A program made the position numbers and the translations under genes. A DNA stretch of 64,000 nucleotides from an uncultured Candidatus Nemicrothrix sp. (GTDB taxonomy: Bacteria; Actinomycetota; Acidimicrobiia; Acidimicrobiales; Aldehydirespiratoraceae). Location of the stretch: NCBI GenBank assembly GCA_964504305.1, contig CAZDEB010000004.1, forward strand, positions 75,441 to 139,440. The letters are read 5' to 3'. Below, piece by piece: positions 45,450 through 53,384 of the stretch. Numbering within the stretch: position 1 is the stretch's first letter; each line of letters opens with the position of its first letter. The notes under the pieces were generated by a model. It saw nothing but the letters and a program-made list of their open reading frames with translations. It did not search any database and was not told where the DNA came from.

Positions 45450-46544
45450 ATGAAAACAACTTCTAGACGTTCAAGAAATCTTGTCCTTGCTGCTCTGGTC
45501 GCCACCTTCGGATTGCTGGTCGCGGCCTGCGGCGGGTCCTCAGACGCGACTGCCCCCACGCAGGCCCAAGACAGCGCTGCTGTCGATGGGACTGCGCCGC
45601 TGGAAGGTGAGTTCCTGGTGTCGGGCTCTTCGACCGTCTACCCGATCGTTCTACGCCAGGCCGAGGCTTTTGGTGGGGTCAACACCGGCGTCGCAATATC
45701 GGTCGAAGGACCCGGATCTGGTGACGGTGCGCAGAAGTTCTGTGCCGGCGAAGTCCCGATCGCCAACGCCTCACGTCTTTACAAGGACGCCGAAGTCGAA
45801 ACCTGTCAAGCAAACGGCGTCGAGTTCATCGAGTTGCGCCGCGGCATTGACGGAATCTCGGTTGTCACCTCGCCTGACAACGACCAGATCGAATGCGTCT
45901 CGTTAAACGACATCTACTCGATCGTGAGCGAAGAAGCCTTTGGTTTCGAGAGCTGGGCCGACGCCAATGCTCTTACCGCCACTTGGGACGGCACCGAGTT
46001 TGCCGACACCGCACTCGACATCTTTGGCCCCGGTGAGGAGTCGGGCACATTCGACTCCTTCGGAGAGATCGTGATCGAATCAGTTGCCAAAGGCAAGACG
46101 GGACTGGACCCCGAGTCGCGCGAGTTCGTCAAGACGATTCGCCCCGACTACACCTCGTCCCCTGACGACAACATCATCATCGAGGGCGTCGGCTCGAGCC
46201 AGTACTCGTTTGGATGGGTGGGGTACGCCTACGCCCAAAGCGCTGCCGATGCCGGTGACGTCAAGCTGGTTGCCGTTTCCAAGGAGGACGGCGGCGACTG
46301 CGTTACCCCGAATCCCGAAACGATTGCGTCGGCCGAGTTCCCGATCTCGCGATTCTTGTACACCTACGTGAACGCCGAAGCGGCCGCCAATGACCCGGCC
46401 GTCTCGGCATTTGTCGACTACATGATGTCTGACGAAGGGCTTACCGCGGTGACCGCCGCAGGTTACGTCGACCTTTCCGCCGCCGATCAGACGTTGAGCC
46501 AGGGCATCTGGGCCAACCGGTCGACTGGCCGTAGCTGGGGTTAG
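45450..46544 (+). CDS. pstS: Phosphate ABC transporter substrate-binding lipoprotein PstS (copy 1)
   Basis: 364 aa. Lipobox LLVAAC. SGSSTVYPIV...VEGPGSGDGAQKF is a PBP-like-2 phosphate-binding pattern. Confidence 0.85.
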   Translation: MKTTSRRSRNLVLAALVATFGLLVAACGGSSDATAPTQAQDSAAVDGTAPLEGEFLVSGSSTVYPIVLRQAEAFGGVNTGVAISVEGPGSGDGAQKFCAGEVPIANASRLYKDAEVETCQANGVEFIELRRGIDGISVVTSPDNDQIECVSLNDIYSIVSEEAFGFESWADANALTATWDGTEFADTALDIFGPGEESGTFDSFGEIVIESVAKGKTGLDPESREFVKTIRPDYTSSPDDNIIIEGVGSSQYSFGWVGYAYAQSAADAGDVKLVAVSKEDGGDCVTPNPETIASAEFPISRFLYTYVNAEAAANDPAVSAFVDYMMSDEGLTAVTAAGYVDLSAADQTLSQGIWANRSTGRSWG

Positions 46545-46587: not shown

Positions 46588-46628
46588 CAGAATTGCCCGG
46601 GGCCGACTTTCGTCCCCGGGCAATTCTG
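46588..46628 (+). terminator. Stem-loop terminator candidate after pstS-1
   Basis: CAGAATTGCCCGGGG-N11-CCCCGGGCAATTCTG is a perfect 15-bp stem, 44 nt after the stop. No clear T-tract. Confidence 0.55.
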
Positions 46629-46773: not shown

Positions 46774-46817
46774 GTTTACCCGTTGTTCACTTTGATGAAG
46801 CCAGTCGTTCACCTGAG
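46774..46817 (+). promoter_or_regulatory. Candidate PHO box (four 11-nt direct-repeat units) upstream of pstS-2
   Basis: GTTTACCcgtt GTTCACTttga TGAAGCCagtc GTTCACCtgag, with units at 46774/46785/46796/46807. Same unit pattern as the pstS-1 site. Confidence 0.6.
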
Positions 46818-46893: not shown

Positions 46894-47988
46894 GTGCGAA
46901 GCGTTGTTGTGCTGCTTGGACTATTTGCCGGTTTCGCGGGCGTCGCGGCCGCGGTCGATTCGGTTCAGGCCGAACCGGTTCGGGTTGCGGTCCAGTCGGG
47001 GGTGGCGTTGGATAGCGCCGACGTTTCGGTCGAGCCGACGGTTGTCGAAGGAGACTTTTTGGTGTCGGGCTCCTCGACGGTTTACCCGATCGTGCTTCGC
47101 CAGGCCGAACAATTCGGTGCGCTGAACGCCGGGGTCGCAATCTCGGTAGAAGGCCCCGGGTCCGGTGACGGGGCCAAGAAGTTCTGCGCTGGCGAGGTGC
47201 CCATCGCCAATGCGTCGCGGCTCTACAAGGACGCCGAGCGCGCCGCGTGCGCCGACAACAACATCGACTACATCGAGATCCGTCGGGGAATCGACGGCAT
47301 CTCGGTGATTACGTCGCCAGAGAACGACCTCATCGATTGTGTGTCGTTCAACGATTTGTACTCCCTAGTCTCCGAAGAGGCGCTCAACTTTCACAAGTGG
47401 TCCGATGCCAACGTCTTGACGTCAGCCTGGGGTGGCACCCAGTTCCCAGACGTCGATCTTCAGATCTTTGGTCCCGGCGAGGAGTCCGGCACCTTCGACT
47501 CGTTCGGCGAGATCGTTGTGGAGTCGGTGGCCAAGGGCAAGACCGGCCTCGACCCGGCCTCGCACGACTATGTCAAGACGATTCGTCCCGATTACACGTC
47601 GAGTCCTGACGACAACGTGATTCTCGAAGGTGTCGGCTCGTCCCAGTACTCGATTGGATGGGTCGGCTACGCCTTTGCCAAGGAAGCCGAGACGGCCGGG
47701 CGGGCCAAGTTGCTCGATGTGTCGTTTGGCGATGACGATTCGTGCGTCACTCCGACTCCGGAGACGATTGCCTCGGCCGACTTCCCCATCGCTCGCTATC
47801 TGTACACCTATGTGAACGCTGACGCCGCAGCGACGGACCCGTCGGTGGCGGCGTTTGTCGACTACATGATGTCCGACGTCGGGCTCGAGTCCGTGACCGA
47901 GGTTGGATATGTCAGACTCGCTGAGGCCGATCAGCTTCGCGCTCACGCAGTGTGGAACAACCGGATTACCGGGCCTTCGTGGGAGTAG
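46894..47988 (+). CDS. pstS: Phosphate ABC transporter substrate-binding protein PstS (copy 2, Sec-type signal, no lipobox)
   Basis: Start set at GTG 46894 (VRSVVVLLGLFAGFAGVAAAVDSVQA), giving 364 aa like copy 1. The track start at 46762 would run through the PHO box. Long identical blocks with copy 1. Confidence 0.85.
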   Translation: MRSVVVLLGLFAGFAGVAAAVDSVQAEPVRVAVQSGVALDSADVSVEPTVVEGDFLVSGSSTVYPIVLRQAEQFGALNAGVAISVEGPGSGDGAKKFCAGEVPIANASRLYKDAERAACADNNIDYIEIRRGIDGISVITSPENDLIDCVSFNDLYSLVSEEALNFHKWSDANVLTSAWGGTQFPDVDLQIFGPGEESGTFDSFGEIVVESVAKGKTGLDPASHDYVKTIRPDYTSSPDDNVILEGVGSSQYSIGWVGYAFAKEAETAGRAKLLDVSFGDDDSCVTPTPETIASADFPIARYLYTYVNADAAATDPSVAAFVDYMMSDVGLESVTEVGYVRLAEADQLRAHAVWNNRITGPSWE

Positions 47989-49406
47989 CGCAGGTCTCAC
48001 CCGACAGGCCAGTGACGCTTGCGCCCATTGGTGGGCGGGCCGTTGGGGCCCTCGCTGAGGCGGTTCTGTTCGTAGTGATCGCGGCGGCCGTGGCGGTCGT
48101 CGAGTATTTTGTCAGCGGCCCAATCGGCTCATTTGGGCCGTCCAATTTTTGGATTGCGTTGGTGATCCTGGCGTTGTGGAGCGCCTGGTATTGGCCGAGT
48201 GGTCAGACCCTGGGCGCAGTGTTGACCGGTCGATACGTTTCGATGCCTGACGGCCGCCCGGCCGCCCCATTGACCATGGCGGCGAGGGAACTCAGCCGCT
48301 TTGGCCTGCTGTACGCCCTGCCGCTGTTGGCCTTCGGGCTCAATGTCGGGTGGACGGCTGTAATCGCGGCGATCGTCGGCGGGCTGATCGCGGTTCGTGG
48401 CGATCGCCGAGCGCCGTGGGACTCTCTGCTTGGCACCACCGTGGCGACCGCCGCGGGAACGTCGACATCACCCGTCACGGCGCCGGTCCGATCGGTACAG
48501 GACCTAAAACTGGATCCTCGACGCACCGCCCAAAACGTTCGGGCCCGCCGGTTGCTGTTTGGCTTTGCCATGTCGTCGGTGGTTATCAGTGTGTTGATCA
48601 TGTGGAACATGTTCAGCGAGGCTTTCGACTTTGTGGCCGCTGAGGAGTTCTCGTGGCAGTCGTTGACCGACATTGGGTGGTTTCCACGCCGGGGTTTGTT
48701 CGACCTGTCGACGCTGTTTGTCGGGACCTTGTGGGTAACGGGTATTGCTATTGCTTTGGCCGGTCCGGTGGGTCTTGGTGTGGCGTTCTATTTGTCGGAG
48801 TATGCGTCGCCGCGGGTGCGGGGGTTCGTCAAACCACTGATCGAAACCCTAGCCAGCATCCCGTCGGTCGTGCTCGGTTTGTTTGCCATCAGCTTCATAG
48901 CTCCGACGATTCTGCAGCCCGTCGATGCCAGCATCGGCATCTTTTCGTTGCTGGCGGCCGGTCTCGGGGTTGGAGTTTTGACGGTGCCGATCGTGGCATC
49001 GATTTCCGAAGATGCTCTGCGGTCGGTTCCCCGCGAACTGCGAGAGGCCTCGTTTGGGCTCGGTGCCCGCAAGGCCACCACGGCTCTGAGGGTGGTTTTC
49101 CCGGCGGCCCTGTCGGGGATCTCTGCCGCGTTCATCGTGGCGATCTCGAGAGCCATCGGCGAGACGATGGTCGTTTACATCGCCGCAGGCGGCTCGGGCG
49201 GCGCGGTATTCGAGGTTGATCCCCGCCAAAGCGGGCAGACCCTCACCGCGGCGATGGCCTCTTTGGGCGCCGGCACCGACAGCGTGGCCGGTGTCGGTAT
49301 TGCCTTCCAGAGTTTGTATTTCCTCGGTGCGGTTTTGTTCGTGATCACCATGGTGCTCAACGTGTTGTCCGACGTTGTGGTGCGCAGATTCAGGCAGGTG
49401 TACTGA
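47952..49406 (+). CDS. pstC: RDD-domain::PstC fusion (phosphate ABC permease with about 170-aa N-terminal RDD-like membrane domain)
   Basis: 484 aa. The C-terminal ~310 aa is PstC (LSEYASPRVRGFVKPLIETLASIPSVVLG). The N-terminus has RDD-like features (GGRAVGALAEAVLF..., SGQTLGAVLTGRYVSMPDG, RRAPWDSLLGTTV). GTG 47979 is an alternative start. Confidence 0.85.
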   Translation: MEQPDYRAFVGVAQVSPDRPVTLAPIGGRAVGALAEAVLFVVIAAAVAVVEYFVSGPIGSFGPSNFWIALVILALWSAWYWPSGQTLGAVLTGRYVSMPDGRPAAPLTMAARELSRFGLLYALPLLAFGLNVGWTAVIAAIVGGLIAVRGDRRAPWDSLLGTTVATAAGTSTSPVTAPVRSVQDLKLDPRRTAQNVRARRLLFGFAMSSVVISVLIMWNMFSEAFDFVAAEEFSWQSLTDIGWFPRRGLFDLSTLFVGTLWVTGIAIALAGPVGLGVAFYLSEYASPRVRGFVKPLIETLASIPSVVLGLFAISFIAPTILQPVDASIGIFSLLAAGLGVGVLTVPIVASISEDALRSVPRELREASFGLGARKATTALRVVFPAALSGISAAFIVAISRAIGETMVVYIAAGGSGGAVFEVDPRQSGQTLTAAMASLGAGTDSVAGVGIAFQSLYFLGAVLFVITMVLNVLSDVVVRRFRQVY

Positions 49407-50323
49407 TGCCAGCACCTACACAAATCAGACTCGACCAATTGCGCCGCCGTAAGGGGGCCGACGTCTTCGGCCAGGTGTTTCTGCTGTTGTTGTTGACGTC
49501 GGTGATCGTCGCCTTTGCGATGGTTGGTTCGGTGATCTGGGATGTCCTGGTAGAGGCCTGGGACCTGATCAGCCACGACATCTGGAACTTCGTTTCCTCC
49601 GCGTCGTCCTCCGAGGCGTCCAAAGCGGGCGTTGCTCAGGGAATCCGCGGCACGCTGATGATCGCCGGGATCGTGATCTTGACCTTCCCAATCGGTATTG
49701 GATCGGCGATCTATCTCGAAGAGTACGCCGACGACACCCGGGCGTCCCGGCTGATTCAAGTGACCGTGCGCAACCTCGCTGGTGTGCCATCGATTGTTTA
49801 CGGCCTGCTGGGGTTGGCGGTCTTCGCAAAGTCCTTGGGCGGTCTCACCGGCGGTTCGAGCGTTATCGCGGCTGGGCTGACCTTGGCCGTCCTCGTTCTT
49901 CCGGTTGTGGTGATCACCGCCGCCGAAGCAATCAGAGCGGTGCCGTCGTCATTACGCGACGGAGCGTACGGACTCGGCGCGACGCAGTGGGAAGTGGTGA
50001 AGACGCAAGTTGTCCCGGCCGCGCTCCCCAGCATCCTGACCGGCACCGTTCTGGCCATCGCCCGAGCTCTGGGCGAAGCTGCACCGTTGTTGGTCATTGG
50101 CGCCGTTGGCTTTTACACCACCGGCAACAACGACTTTGTCGAACAACTCCAAGGGGCGTTCACCGCCTTGCCCATGAACATCGCCAATTTCGCTCGACTG
50201 CCGGCCGATACGTGGCGTGGCCACGCCGCGGCGGCCAGTCTCGTGCTGTTGGCCTTGGTATTTATGATCAACCTGGTGGCGATCATCGCCCGTTCCCGCA
50301 TCTCGAAACGCCTTGGGCGCTGA
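49406..50323 (+). CDS. pstA: Phosphate ABC transporter permease PstA
   Basis: 305 aa. ATGA-type junction with pst[30 protein letters not shown]. Confidence 0.9.
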
Positions 50324-50339: not shown

Positions 50340-51176
50340 ATGACCGGTCCAAACATTCGTTCCCTCGCCAGCTCTTCGGAGCCGCTCGACGACACCGCTG
50401 ACGTGGTGTTCGAAGTCGAGGGACTCAACGTCCTCTACGGCGATCACCGGGCGGTCGGCGACGTCGACATCACTATCCGCGAACGGGAGATCACCGCGTT
50501 CATTGGTCCTTCGGGCTGTGGCAAATCCACCGTTCTGCGCTGTTTCAACCGAATGAACGATCTGATCGATATCGCTCGGGTTGAAGGGTCGGTCAAATAC
50601 CACGGAATCGACCTGTACGACCCGCAGGTAGACCCGGTGGCGGTTCGTCGGCGGATCGGCATGGTGTTTCAAAAGCCCAACCCGTTCCCCAAGTCGATAT
50701 TTGACAACGTTGCCTACGGCCCTCGCGTGGGCGGACAGCGCAGTGGGCTCGACGAGGTCGTCGAACGTTCGTTGCGTAGCGCCGGACTGTGGGAAGAGGT
50801 GAAGGATCGCCTCGACACTTCGGCGCTCGGAATGTCGGGTGGTCAACAACAACGTCTGTGCATCGCCCGGGCCATTGCCGTGAACCCCGACGTGTTGTTG
50901 ATGGACGAACCTTGTTCGGCTCTTGACCCGATCGCCACGGGTCGCATCGAGGAACTCATGAAGGAGATCCAGAACGAGTACACGATCGTCATCGTGACCC
51001 ACAACATGCAACAGGCTGCTCGGGTGAGCGACCGCACTGCCTTCTTTACCGCCGAAGTTGATGCGCACAGCGGGCAACGGCGAGGCAAACTCGTTGAGTT
51101 CAACGAGACTGGCACGATCTTTTCGAACCCTGATGACGAACGAACCGAAGCGTACGTCACGGGCCGGTTCGGATGA
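50340..51176 (+). CDS. pstB: Phosphate ABC transporter ATP-binding protein PstB
   Basis: Start set at ATG 50340. Walker [10 protein letters not shown], signature [14 protein letters not shown], PstB-typical ending [10 protein letters not shown]. Confidence 0.95.
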
Positions 51177-51240: not shown

Positions 51241-52695
51241 ATGGAGAAGAACGTGAACGAAATTCGATCACAACTCGATGAACGGCTTGGTCTGATCGAG
51301 CAGCGCCTGCTCGAGATGGTCGAGTTGGTGGCAACGCGTGTCGGCGAGGTCACCACTGCGATGCTCGAGGGCGATGTTGCCTTGGCCGACACTTTGGTCG
51401 CGGGTGACGACGATATCGACCTCTTGTCGCTGCAGGTCGAAGAAGGTTGTGTCGATACGTTGGTGCGCGAGCAGCCCGTCGCGTCGGACCTGAGGTTCGT
51501 GGTCGCGTCGATGCACATGAACAGCGATATCGAGCGCAGCGGCGATCTCGTCGTCAACATTGCCAAGGCGGTCGGTCGACTTCAGGGCGCCCATCCCGAC
51601 GATCATGTCCGGGAGTTGGTGGCGCGTATGTCGGCTCTTGCGCAAGAACTGCTTCGCCGGGCCGCCGAGGCCTTCGAGAACCGCGACGCCCAACTAGCGG
51701 AGTCGATCGACGAGCTTGATGACTTGCTCGACGACATGCACTATCGCTATATCCAGTACGTCATCCAGGATGCTCGCCGTGGGGCGCTCGACCCTCAACA
51801 ATCGCTACAGCTAGCCCTGGTTGGTCGGTTCTACGAACGCATCGGCGATCACGCCGAGAACTTGGGTGAGCGGGTCCGTTACATCGTCGACGGTTGGTTG
51901 CCCGAGACCCAAGCCGCCGAGCGGGCCCGGGCTCGGGTTCAACTCGACGAGCCCCACACGAGCCGAGGACTCGCGGTGATCGACACCATTGCCGAAGAGC
52001 GACGAATCGACGCGATCCGGCGCGACTTTGTGGCCAACGTTTCTCACGAGCTCAAGACCCCGGTCGGGGCTATGAGCCTGTTGGCCGAAACGCTCACCGC
52101 AGAGTCCGAGACCGCCGATCGCGAACGTTTGGCTTCGTTGCTTCGGAAAGAAGCCAAACGCGTCGAGGACATCATCGATGATCTGCTCGAACTCACCCGC
52201 CTCGAGGAAGCCGAGAACGAGCTTGAGACCTTGTCGATCGGCGATCTAGTGGCGAGATCGGTCGAAAAGGTCGCCACTTTGGCCGGTGGTTTGCGAGTCG
52301 AGGTGGCCACTGTTGGGTTGCCTTGCGACACCGAAATCCAGGGCGACCGGCGAGCGTTGGTTCGGGCTATCACCAACCTGATAGACAACGCGGTCCGTTA
52401 CTCAGAACCCGAGCAACAGGTGACGGTCTCGGTTGAGGCCCGTGCGGAATCGGTCGCAGTCGCAATCCGCGATCATGGCGTGGGTATTCCGCGGGCCGAG
52501 CTCGAACGGGTCTTCGAGCGGTTCTATCGCGTTGATCGGGCCCGGAGTCGAGAGACCGGCGGCACCGGTCTGGGGCTGGCCATCGTGCGTCACGTCGCCG
52601 AGAATCACGGCGGGCGGGTGCTGGTCGAGTCGAAGCCCGGCGATGGGTCCACGTTCTCCATCGAATTGCCAAGGGCAGACGCAGAAACGCTGTGA
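51241..52695 (+). CDS. PhoU-domain::sensor histidine kinase fusion (soluble SenX3/PhoR-like kinase)
   Basis: Start set at ATG 51241. 484 aa with no hydrophobic TM segment. Two PhoU repeats (SDIERSGDLVVNIAK; FYERIGDHAENLGERV), then HisKA (FVANVSHELKTPVG) and HATPase_c (NLIDNAVRY...GGTGLGLAIV). Confidence 0.85.
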   Translation: MEKNVNEIRSQLDERLGLIEQRLLEMVELVATRVGEVTTAMLEGDVALADTLVAGDDDIDLLSLQVEEGCVDTLVREQPVASDLRFVVASMHMNSDIERSGDLVVNIAKAVGRLQGAHPDDHVRELVARMSALAQELLRRAAEAFENRDAQLAESIDELDDLLDDMHYRYIQYVIQDARRGALDPQQSLQLALVGRFYERIGDHAENLGERVRYIVDGWLPETQAAERARARVQLDEPHTSRGLAVIDTIAEERRIDAIRRDFVANVSHELKTPVGAMSLLAETLTAESETADRERLASLLRKEAKRVEDIIDDLLELTRLEEAENELETLSIGDLVARSVEKVATLAGGLRVEVATVGLPCDTEIQGDRRALVRAITNLIDNAVRYSEPEQQVTVSVEARAESVAVAIRDHGVGIPRAELERVFERFYRVDRARSRETGGTGLGLAIVRHVAENHGGRVLVESKPGDGSTFSIELPRADAETL

Positions 52696-53384
52696 GCGGC
52701 CCGGTTACCGTCCTCGTCGTCGATGACGAACCTTCCTTTCGAGAAGGCCTCCGTCACGCGCTCAAACAGGAAGGATTTGTGGTGCACCTGGCCGCTGACG
52801 GCCGAGAGGCTCTCGAAATGTTTGACGCCCATCGCCCTGATCTGGTGCTGCTTGACGTGATGTTGCCCCGATTGTCCGGGCTTGATGTTTGCCGCAAAAT
52901 CCGAGCCGACCACCAAACACCGATCATCATGGTGTCGGCTCGCAACGAGGAAATCGACGCAGTCGTCGCCTTGGAGGTCGGTGCCGACGACTATGTTGCG
53001 AAGCCGTACCGGGTGCGCGAGTTGGTCGCCCGGATGCGCACCGTCTTGCGTCGTTCCGGGACACCCAACGAGACCACCGAGTCGAACCATCTCGTTGTTG
53101 GGGCGATCGTGCTCGACAAAGAACGCCACGAGCTCGAGATAGATGCGGTGCCAGTGCAACTCCCACTGAAGGAATTCCAGTTGTTGGCCTTGCTGATGGA
53201 GAACGCCGGCATTGTTGTGACCCGTCAAACCCTCATCGATCGGGTGTGGGGTTATGACTATGTCGGCGACACCAAGACGCTGGATGTGCACATCAAACGG
53301 CTTCGGGCCAAGGTCGAGCCCCATCCCGATTCGCCCGAACGCATTGTGACGATCCGCGGGTTGGGTTACAAGCTCAACGCCTGA
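52692..53384 (+). CDS. OmpR/PhoB-family response regulator (RegX3/PhoP-like)
   Basis: 230 aa. VLVVDDEPSF...DLVLLDVMLP... winged-helix end TIRGLGYKL. GTGA overlap with the kinase. Confidence 0.92.
   Translation: MSGPVTVLVVDDEPSFREGLRHALKQEGFVVHLAADGREALEMFDAHRPDLVLLDVMLPRLSGLDVCRKIRADHQTPIIMVSARNEEIDAVVALEVGADDYVAKPYRVRELVARMRTVLRRSGTPNETTESNHLVVGAIVLDKERHELEIDAVPVQLPLKEFQLLALLMENAGIVVTRQTLIDRVWGYDYVGDTKTLDVHIKRLRAKVEPHPDSPERIVTIRGLGYKLNA

Follow-up and report, generated by a model that had tools for sequence, protein, structure and literature searches.

The closest described relatives of the system reported here are PstSCAB-PhoU-PhoR-PhoB of Escherichia coli and Salmonella and SenX3-RegX3 of mycobacteria with PhoU1 and PhoU2 (PhoY1 and PhoY2). 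How Pho two-component systems perceive phosphate is disputed: in one view the signal is PstSCAB flux, which PhoU passes on to the PhoR PAS domain, and in the other PhoU directly senses cytoplasmic inorganic phosphate (Pi). In E. coli, phoU follows pstB, and PhoU is a separate protein of 241 amino acids (aa) that binds both PstB and PhoR; residues A147 and R148 are needed for contacting the PAS of PhoR, a kinase with two transmembrane helices in addition to this PhoU-binding PAS (PMC4423584). The mycobacterial genes are separate and unlinked. In Mycobacterium smegmatis, PhoU was concluded to sense Pi inside the cell and to act on SenX3 without any need for Pst; the SenX3 membrane anchor is dispensable while its PAS is essential for Pi sensing, purified PhoU1 plus Pi shifts SenX3 devoid of its transmembrane part to phosphatase mode, and an alpha6 motif, RxxERxxD(R/H), has been proposed as the Pi site (PMC12301784). 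We analyzed a stretch of 64,000 nucleotides (hereafter the window) from a marine, uncultured Candidatus Nemicrothrix sp. of the Acidimicrobiales (GCA_964504305.1, contig CAZDEB010000004.1, positions 75,441 to 139,440 of the forward strand), in which a single gene at 51241-52695 (+) encodes PhoU together with the core of a histidine kinase.

The locus shares with E. coli and Salmonella a Pst transporter, PhoU, a bifunctional HisKA-type kinase and an OmpR/PhoB-family regulator. Unlike in E. coli, the PhoU module is covalently joined to the DHp (dimerization and histidine phosphotransfer) and CA (catalytic) core of the kinase, and neither a transmembrane helix nor a PAS domain remains. The host belongs to the same phylum as the mycobacteria, the kinases of its sister Acidimicrobiia have the SenX3 layout, and the alpha6 motif is conserved; in contrast to mycobacteria, the PAS has been deleted in the window clade. 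We consider it fairly likely, from sequence and by analogy to these systems, that the product is a soluble Pho-regulon sensor kinase with PhoU as the input domain that gates its DHp-CA core. The parts and the logic of the Pho system are known. What is new is the covalent arrangement, the loss of transmembrane helix and PAS, and a series that leads from separate genes through PhoU-PAS-kinase to PhoU-kinase. A full-text literature search, which did not cover subscription-only papers, found no description of a PhoU-kinase fusion. Other PhoU-domain fusions in Pfam architectures are Na/Pi cotransporter-PhoU (YjbB/NptA type) and archaeal AbrB-PhoU; there too PhoU is a portable regulatory module, with a transporter or a DNA-binding domain as partner and not a histidine kinase. 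The BceS-BceAB type is similar in concept, as a kinase without its own sensory domain uses the transporter machinery (bioRxiv 10.1101/2020.02.28.969956). BceS differs in being a membrane protein that contacts the permease and is not known to involve a PhoU-like adaptor or a fusion.

The fused PhoU-kinase gene

An earlier note on this DNA, made from the letters alone, had claimed a 484-aa open reading frame (ORF) after pstB that joins PhoU to HisKA and HATPase_c and has neither a hydrophobic segment nor a PAS domain. This description was borne out. Positions 51241-52695 (+) form a single stop-free ORF of 484 aa. A GTG at codon 5 (51253) is an alternative start that gives 480 aa, is a better match to the family N-terminus 'MNEIR' shared by most relatives, and may be the true start; a Shine-Dalgarno-like purine run precedes each of the two candidates. 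PhoU (PF01895) matched in two stretches (E 3.3e-34, 117.5 bits against the Pfam cut-off of 23.5). The NCBIfam model TIGR02135 phoU_full covered aa 11-218 with 166.6 bits against a cut-off of 130.25, which removes the concern, raised in the same note, that the N-terminal half might not match PhoU models. Both PhoU-repeat motifs quoted there, SDIERSGDLVVNIAK and FYERIGDHAENLGERV, are present in the protein, as is the H-box SHELKTP. Free-standing PhoU proteins have about 210-240 aa; here the PhoU module instead runs without a stop into a histidine kinase, with HisKA at aa 260-323 (Pfam, E 4.9e-16) and HATPase_c at aa 368-479 (E 2.4e-32). The kinase half is closest to the PnpS and PhoR models, and the alignment begins only after their PAS part; the equivalog thresholds were missed (TIGR02966 PhoR, 241.1 bits versus 334.2; NF046044 PnpS, 253.4 versus 400). 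No PAS was matched by Pfam in the fusion protein. No hydrophobic segment was found either, the top Kyte-Doolittle mean over 19 residues being 1.26 versus 2.57 for PstC and 2.77 for PstA of the same operon, and because of this low maximum the protein is predicted to be soluble. The parts of the gene are as follows.

51241..51894 (+): PhoU module of two repeats forming a six-helix bundle, aa 1-218 (Pfam, TIGR02135, AlphaFold2 model)
51895..51942 (+): C-terminal tail helix of PhoU, aa 219-234, GWLPE..AAERARAR (comparison with standalone PhoU; AlphaFold2 helix 221-234)
51943..51966 (+): disordered linker of variable length, aa 235-242, marking the fusion junction (length variation in the family; pLDDT below 50)
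51967..52017 (+): remnant of the last PAS strand (RGLAVID) and helix into DHp, aa 243-259 (junction alignment)
52018..52209 (+): HisKA/DHp, aa 260-323, with phospho-acceptor His269 in SHELKTP (Pfam HisKA)
52225..52680 (+): HATPase_c catalytic domain, aa 329-480, with N, G1, F and G2 boxes (Pfam HATPase_c)

In the AlphaFold2 model the PhoU bundle (aa 2-217) consists of helices 2-43, 46-76, 81-113, 121-147, 150-179 and 185-217, mostly at a predicted local distance difference test score (pLDDT) of about 90. It is followed by the tail helix (221-234), by aa 235-264 with pLDDT below 50, by DHp (255-323) and by CA (329-480). The PhoU bundle and the DHp-CA core are each predicted with confidence. A Foldseek search against the PDB matched only the kinase half, with the solved cores of HK853, WalK and CusS alike.

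At least 120 clusters (90% identity) have the same combination of PhoU, HisKA and HATPase_c in a single ORF, with identities to the query going as low as 60%. Where these carry names they are Acidimicrobiales, Acidimicrobiaceae or Actinomycetota metagenome-assembled genomes. Seven contigs, drawn from several archives, encode the identical protein. NCBI and JGI label the fusion proteins 'phosphate signaling complex protein PhoU', a name that hides the kinase, so that these genomes seem to lack a Pho sensor kinase. Family hidden Markov models (HMMs) run on the six-frame translation of the window found only the fusion gene, with no second PhoU and no similar kinase.

An alignment of 26 fusion sequences had a mean column identity of 71%. 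Invariant in the kinase half are S268 to P274 (SHELKTP, including H269), N379 and N383, D411-x-G-x-G, F425-R430 (FERFYR) and G440-L446 (GGTGLGL). The H-E-x-x-T motif adjoining His269, a motif tied to phosphatase activity in HisKA kinases, is invariant as well. The only segment of variable length lies between the end of PhoU and the conserved 'SRGLAVIDSIAEERRIDAIRRDF'.

Sister lineages and the origin of the fusion

Genomes, one per species, were scanned with an alignment of the PhoU halves as query, and the best 80 loci were compared; the names on all but one of these are Acidimicrobiia or Actinomycetota. The loci fell into two groups. The fused group comprises 27 loci whose PhoU shares 58% identity or more with the query and lies in one ORF with the kinase core, 11-21 residues apart. 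In the other 53 loci PhoU is at most 49% identical and phoU is a separate gene; this standalone group takes in Poriferisodalis, Poriferisocius, Ilumatobacteraceae, Microthrixaceae and Rhabdothermincola. The best 80 loci included no further close PhoU from assemblies of the fused clade. The one exception in naming, L025 (CAXMSE010000014.1), is a fusion locus of the window type in a metagenome-assembled genome titled 'uncultured Gammaproteobacteria bacterium', a title that probably stems from faulty binning or labelling.

Downstream of standalone phoU, 49 of 53 loci carry a kinase core and a response regulator in the same orientation, and pstSCAB precedes phoU wherever upstream DNA exists. The sister kinase gene begins no more than about 30 nucleotides (nt) from the phoU stop or overlaps it. 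All sister kinases inspected have a PAS region with a SenX3/PhoR-like signature, and most also have one transmembrane helix (maximal 19-residue hydropathy about 2.0-3.4), which is missing in a few freshwater lineages. Their cores are homologous to the window kinase core (115-310 bits with a kinase-core HMM). This comparison shows, as the reconstructed ancestral operon of Acidimicrobiia, pstSCAB-phoU-kinase-regulator with a SenX3/PhoR-type kinase composed of one transmembrane helix, PAS, DHp and CA.

Two other arrangements were seen in the standalone group. In L077, L078, L080 and L084 an OmpR-type regulator directly follows phoU with no kinase gene between them, and no pst genes lie within 8 kb upstream; several of these loci are from lake or river samples by their record names. 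In L042, L049, L056, L057, L059 and L063 two phoU genes, one of them divergent, stand in tandem between pstB and the kinase gene.

The junction could be traced from both sides. Standalone PhoUs share the 'GWLPEHxGAxRAxAR' tail with the fused ones and then end in a short acidic tail; the tail helix of the fusion protein is ancestral because it is also present in these sister PhoUs. On the kinase side, the fusion protein lacks about 110 residues exactly where its relatives carry PAS, and RGLAVID aligns with the final PAS beta-strand of sister kinases and of PAS-retaining fusions. Only about 30 nt separate the PhoU and kinase-core matches, and the coding sequence for transmembrane helix and PAS is physically gone. 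In the simplest history the window gene would have arisen by an in-frame deletion of about 150 codons between adjacent phoU and kinase genes, which would have removed the stop codon, the transmembrane helix and nearly all of the PAS. Together with the 49 sister loci that have separate genes, the junction alignment and the recurrence described below, this supports the proposal in the earlier note of a Rosetta-stone fusion, with PhoU standing where the kinase would otherwise have its N-terminal transmembrane and PAS input region.

When 1.84 billion representatives (50% identity) were searched, only a handful of clusters contained both halves. Among them were P0124 and P0127 (577-585 aa), which have an extra segment of about 120 residues. 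In a second homologue search the fusions could be set apart into three classes by the distance from the end of PhoU to the kinase core.

Class A: the window clade; gap 11-32 aa; PAS lost
Class B: P0123/P0299-like proteins of 494-540 aa; gap 20-34 aa; PAS lost
Class C: at least 20 clusters from metagenomes, including P0124 and P0127, of 574-609 aa; gap 104-130 aa; PAS kept, transmembrane helix lost

Two class B clusters are named in NCBI records, as 'Acidimicrobiales' and 'Actinobacteria'. BLASTP shows homology between the class C insert and the PAS region of sister kinases (1e-8 to 1e-21), and AlphaFold2 folds the insert as a canonical PAS of five strands with flanking helices (pLDDT 83-92), with a disordered linker before it and a continuous DHp helix after it; strand E340-349 of this model corresponds to the RGLAVID strand. 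Its PAS identity is taken from BLASTP and the predicted fold because Pfam PAS models match class C inserts and sister kinases only below threshold (E about 1e-3). Class C fusions share operon position, PhoU module, disordered linker and kinase core with the window protein and differ in keeping a complete PAS. The order pstSCAB-fusion-regulator is present at the class B locus of P0299 (L087, L088) and at the class C locus L005 (P0127). At the P0124 loci of class C (L003, L004) only a short pstB-like ABC_tran ORF of 137 aa, which may be a pstB remnant, lies 5' of the fusion, and genes on the opposite strand precede it.

A PhoU tree, a coarse one built by neighbour-joining from simple distances with 60 bootstraps, recovered class A as monophyletic in 55/60 and class B in 41/60 replicates and grouped the two together in 0/60. 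Class C was never monophyletic and was interleaved with standalone PhoUs of different lineages. This pattern indicates several independent PhoU-kinase fusions, and the class C fusions look like parallel or intermediate stages. Recurrent fusion is what a true functional partnership predicts. A covalent PhoU-kinase contact made several times over is independent evolutionary evidence for direct action of PhoU on the kinase.

How PhoU may control the kinase

Two features of the alignments bear on the putative function of PhoU as input domain. First, E98-R99-x-x-D102 (of the E/D-x-x-x-D type) and R196-x-x-E199-R200-x-x-D203-H204 are invariant in all 26 fused and all 53 standalone PhoUs, and the latter fits the alpha6 motif put forward as Pi site (PMC12301784). 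Second, several positions, among them G112, Q115, E206, D161, D165 and H167, are invariant once PhoU is fused and differ or vary in standalone PhoUs, in which position 112 is mostly R, position 115 mostly Y and position 206 is V in 53/53 sequences. These positions are candidates for a new PhoU-kinase interface. R213 is a further residue with clade-specific invariance. The PhoU half is 26% identical to E. coli PhoU, and A147/R148 of the latter correspond to E146/N147. Relaxed constraint at these PAS-contact positions was considered and dropped, since the columns vary in fused and standalone Acidimicrobiia PhoUs alike and are therefore uninformative. The linker, of 10-30 residues, is both variable in length and disordered, which argues against rigid-helix signalling and favours regulated docking, with the tether supplying the local concentration for which other systems rely on PAS binding.

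From this we propose the following mechanism. When phosphate is sufficient, the PhoU module would be 'on'. Binding of Pi or metal to its invariant E/DxxxD and RxxERxxDH motifs would bring this about, and PstB contact might strengthen it. In this state the module would dock onto the DHp-CA core within its own dimer and keep that core in the phosphatase state, leaving the regulator unphosphorylated. When phosphate falls, the module would release the core, which would autophosphorylate on His269; from there the phosphoryl group would move to Asp55 in the regulator encoded downstream. This protein would then activate the operon through GTTYAC/GTTCA repeats 5' of both pstS genes, and expression of the kinase and of the regulator itself would also rise if they are co-transcribed with pst. 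A PAS could be dispensable because the tether would make the encounter of PhoU and kinase obligatory. If so, the PAS, considered essential in E. coli and M. smegmatis and discarded in two of the classes, would not be intrinsically required for control of DHp-CA by PhoU. The classes form a graded natural series of soluble proteins that is handy for structural and in vitro work.

Some points weigh against this mechanism. The AlphaFold2 output for the fusion protein gives no contacts between the domains, and its predicted template modelling score (pTM) is only 0.50. A PAS-less kinase would need a different PhoU-kinase interface, and none is visible in that model. Furthermore, the direction of regulation, with PhoU 'on' giving the phosphatase, is borrowed from E. 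coli, Salmonella and M. smegmatis.

How much of the sensing resides in the fusion protein itself is a separate matter. It is possible, and we put it forward tentatively, that PhoU-DHp-CA is a self-contained cytoplasmic phosphate sensor in which PhoU binds Pi (and metal) and gates the core without PAS, membrane complex or PstB. If this were true, PhoU and not the Pst transporter would be the primary phosphate receptor and the PAS only an adaptor, and one soluble polypeptide would serve to settle what PhoR/SenX3 systems sense.

Also doubtful is the converse, in which the PhoU module docks on the PstB dimer and recruits the soluble kinase to the membrane, the conformational or ATPase state of PstB being the only signal that reaches DHp-CA, with no sensing of cytoplasmic Pi by PhoU itself. 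Gene order speaks for it. Upstream DNA is sufficient in 24 class A loci, and in 20 of them pstB lies directly 5' of the fusion gene, including four (L017, L018, L019 and L024) with an 'orphan' pstB-fusion-regulator unit and no pstS, pstC or pstA in the locus. A PHO-box match lies just before pstB in L017, L018 and L019, and L018 has the same flanks as the window (guaA, DinB-like); these orphan units and matching flanks mean that pstSSCA departed from the locus and that pstB was kept beside the fusion. E. coli PhoU also binds PstB, and signalling there needs both PhoU and PstSCAB (PMC4423584). Against it, the remaining four loci have no adjacent pstB (L015, L025, L032 (2 kb away) and L022 (divergent)), and adjacency to pstB is ancestral and may be mere inheritance. 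The putative Pi-binding alpha6 motif is invariant, and in M. smegmatis Pi sensing by PhoU/SenX3 proceeds without PstB, PhoU1 and Pi being enough in vitro (PMC12301784). The claim of the earlier note that the kinase would read transporter status directly by docking on PstB thus has some support from gene order, and the four loci without adjacent pstB and the M. smegmatis results speak against it. A PstB signal and PhoU-bound Pi could both operate.

The proposed gating by PhoU can also be set against a purely passive tether, in which the PhoU part only brakes Pst transport via PstB, the kinase is otherwise controlled or constitutive, and the fusion is neutral. The adjoining or overlapping phoU and kinase genes of the sister lineages would make such a fusion easy, and a singleton (L086, below) shows that read-through products or artefacts occur. 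Plain loss of a stop, however, would have retained transmembrane helix and PAS, whereas both were cleanly removed and the outcome was kept clade-wide at the column identity given above. The fusion also recurred, in at least three classes, and the PhoU surface positions named above became invariant only after it. The kinase has no other input domain and would in this case be left without a sensor. We therefore regard a passive tether as very unlikely.

That the ORF is an artefact, produced by a missed stop or frameshift between separate phoU and kinase genes or by a chimeric assembly, is already refuted by the comparative data and has next to no chance of being correct, as nothing suspicious was found at the window locus, the same frame and architecture recur in at least 120 clusters and 27 species-representative genomes, the identical protein stands on seven contigs, and the sequence for transmembrane helix and PAS is missing outright. 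The hidden stop codon that the earlier note had allowed for is ruled out by the same data.

The sole suspicious case is the unrelated singleton L086, where a single 823-aa ORF (P0294, 6001-8472) joins PstB and PhoU to HisKA and HATPase_c. The contig carries a 696-aa pstS-pstC ORF as well and adjoins ppk. Since it is a singleton on a contig with a further single ORF of this kind, the PstB-PhoU-kinase ORF probably reflects indel errors of the assembly and was not used as evidence; if real, it would be a three-way Rosetta stone. Another unusual protein, P0128 (396 aa, on a 3.6-kb NCBI contig), is a PhoU-kinase fusion with a single hybrid PhoU repeat, in which an internal deletion apparently joins 'EIER.GD' of repeat 1 to 'GDHAVN' of repeat 2. 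This may be a true variant or the result of a collapsed assembly.

The pst operon of the window

The fusion gene stands between pstB and the regulator gene in the following setting. The start of pstS2 was taken from a gene call on the identical contig L001.

45366..45381 (+): PHO-box-like direct repeat pair GTTTACCCAGTGTTCA, 84 nt 5' of pstS1 (pattern GTTYACnnnnnGTTCA)
45450..46544 (+): pstS1, phosphate-binding protein (Pfam PBP_like_2, E 2.4e-33)
46588..46628 (+): hairpin between pstS1 and pstS2, with arms of 19 nt and a loop of 3 nt (inverted repeat, 95% complementary)
46774..46789 (+): second PHO-box-like pair GTTTACCCGTTGTTCA, about 120 nt 5' of pstS2 (pattern GTTYACnnnnnGTTCA)
46909..47988 (+): pstS2, second phosphate-binding protein (Pfam PBP_like_2, E 2.2e-31; gene call in L001)
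47979..49406 (+): pstC with an N-terminal membrane extension of about 170 aa, RDD-like (BPD_transp_1 at aa 274-481)
49406..50323 (+): pstA permease (Pfam BPD_transp_1)
50340..51176 (+): pstB ATPase (TIGR00972, 380.3 bits against a cut-off of 343.2; gene call in L001)
52692..53384 (+): OmpR/PhoB-family response regulator (Response_reg, E 4.3e-35; Trans_reg_C, E 4.9e-29)

The end of pstB (51176) and the start of the fusion ORF are 64 nt apart. The GTG start of the regulator (52692) and the fusion stop overlap by 4 nt, an overlap whose presence the first reading of this DNA had also stated, and the regulator is, on sequence grounds, translationally coupled to the fusion gene. It lies directly 3' of the fusion gene in 27/27 class A loci. 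A terminator scan gave only weak hairpins that were not clearly above shuffled sequence, one of them between pstB and the fusion gene. Because the spacing is tight and no strong terminator lies 3' of pstB, we infer that the kinase and regulator genes are co-transcribed with the pst genes. A sigma-70 promoter scan found nothing, and an Rfam scan of the window gave no matches.

The 64 kb contain exactly two copies of GTTYACnnnnnGTTCA, one 5' of each pstS, where 0.06 copies are expected; two copies were reached in 0/100 shuffles. The same motif was found 5' of pstS or pstB in most related loci. The pair resembles the direct repeats of actinobacterial PHO boxes (11-nt units with a GTTCACC core), and the two pairs are probably PHO boxes for the downstream regulator. 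The two pstS paralogues stand in tandem with a hairpin between them and a PHO-box-like site each, an arrangement by which the binding proteins could be expressed differently from the rest of the operon.

The N-terminal extension of PstC contains two or three hydrophobic segments and matches Pfam RDD with 23.2 bits, just below the cut-off of 24.1. Of 16 fused-clade loci with pstC, 15 have it in one ORF with the PstC core; in the other, L014, a stop splits it over two adjacent ORFs. The extension is absent from all of the approximately 35 standalone-phoU loci, and pstC of classes B and C is of normal length (316-321 aa). The clade whose kinase has no membrane anchor has thus gained a membrane domain on its permease. 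Because the fused clade is monophyletic, this counts as only one event.

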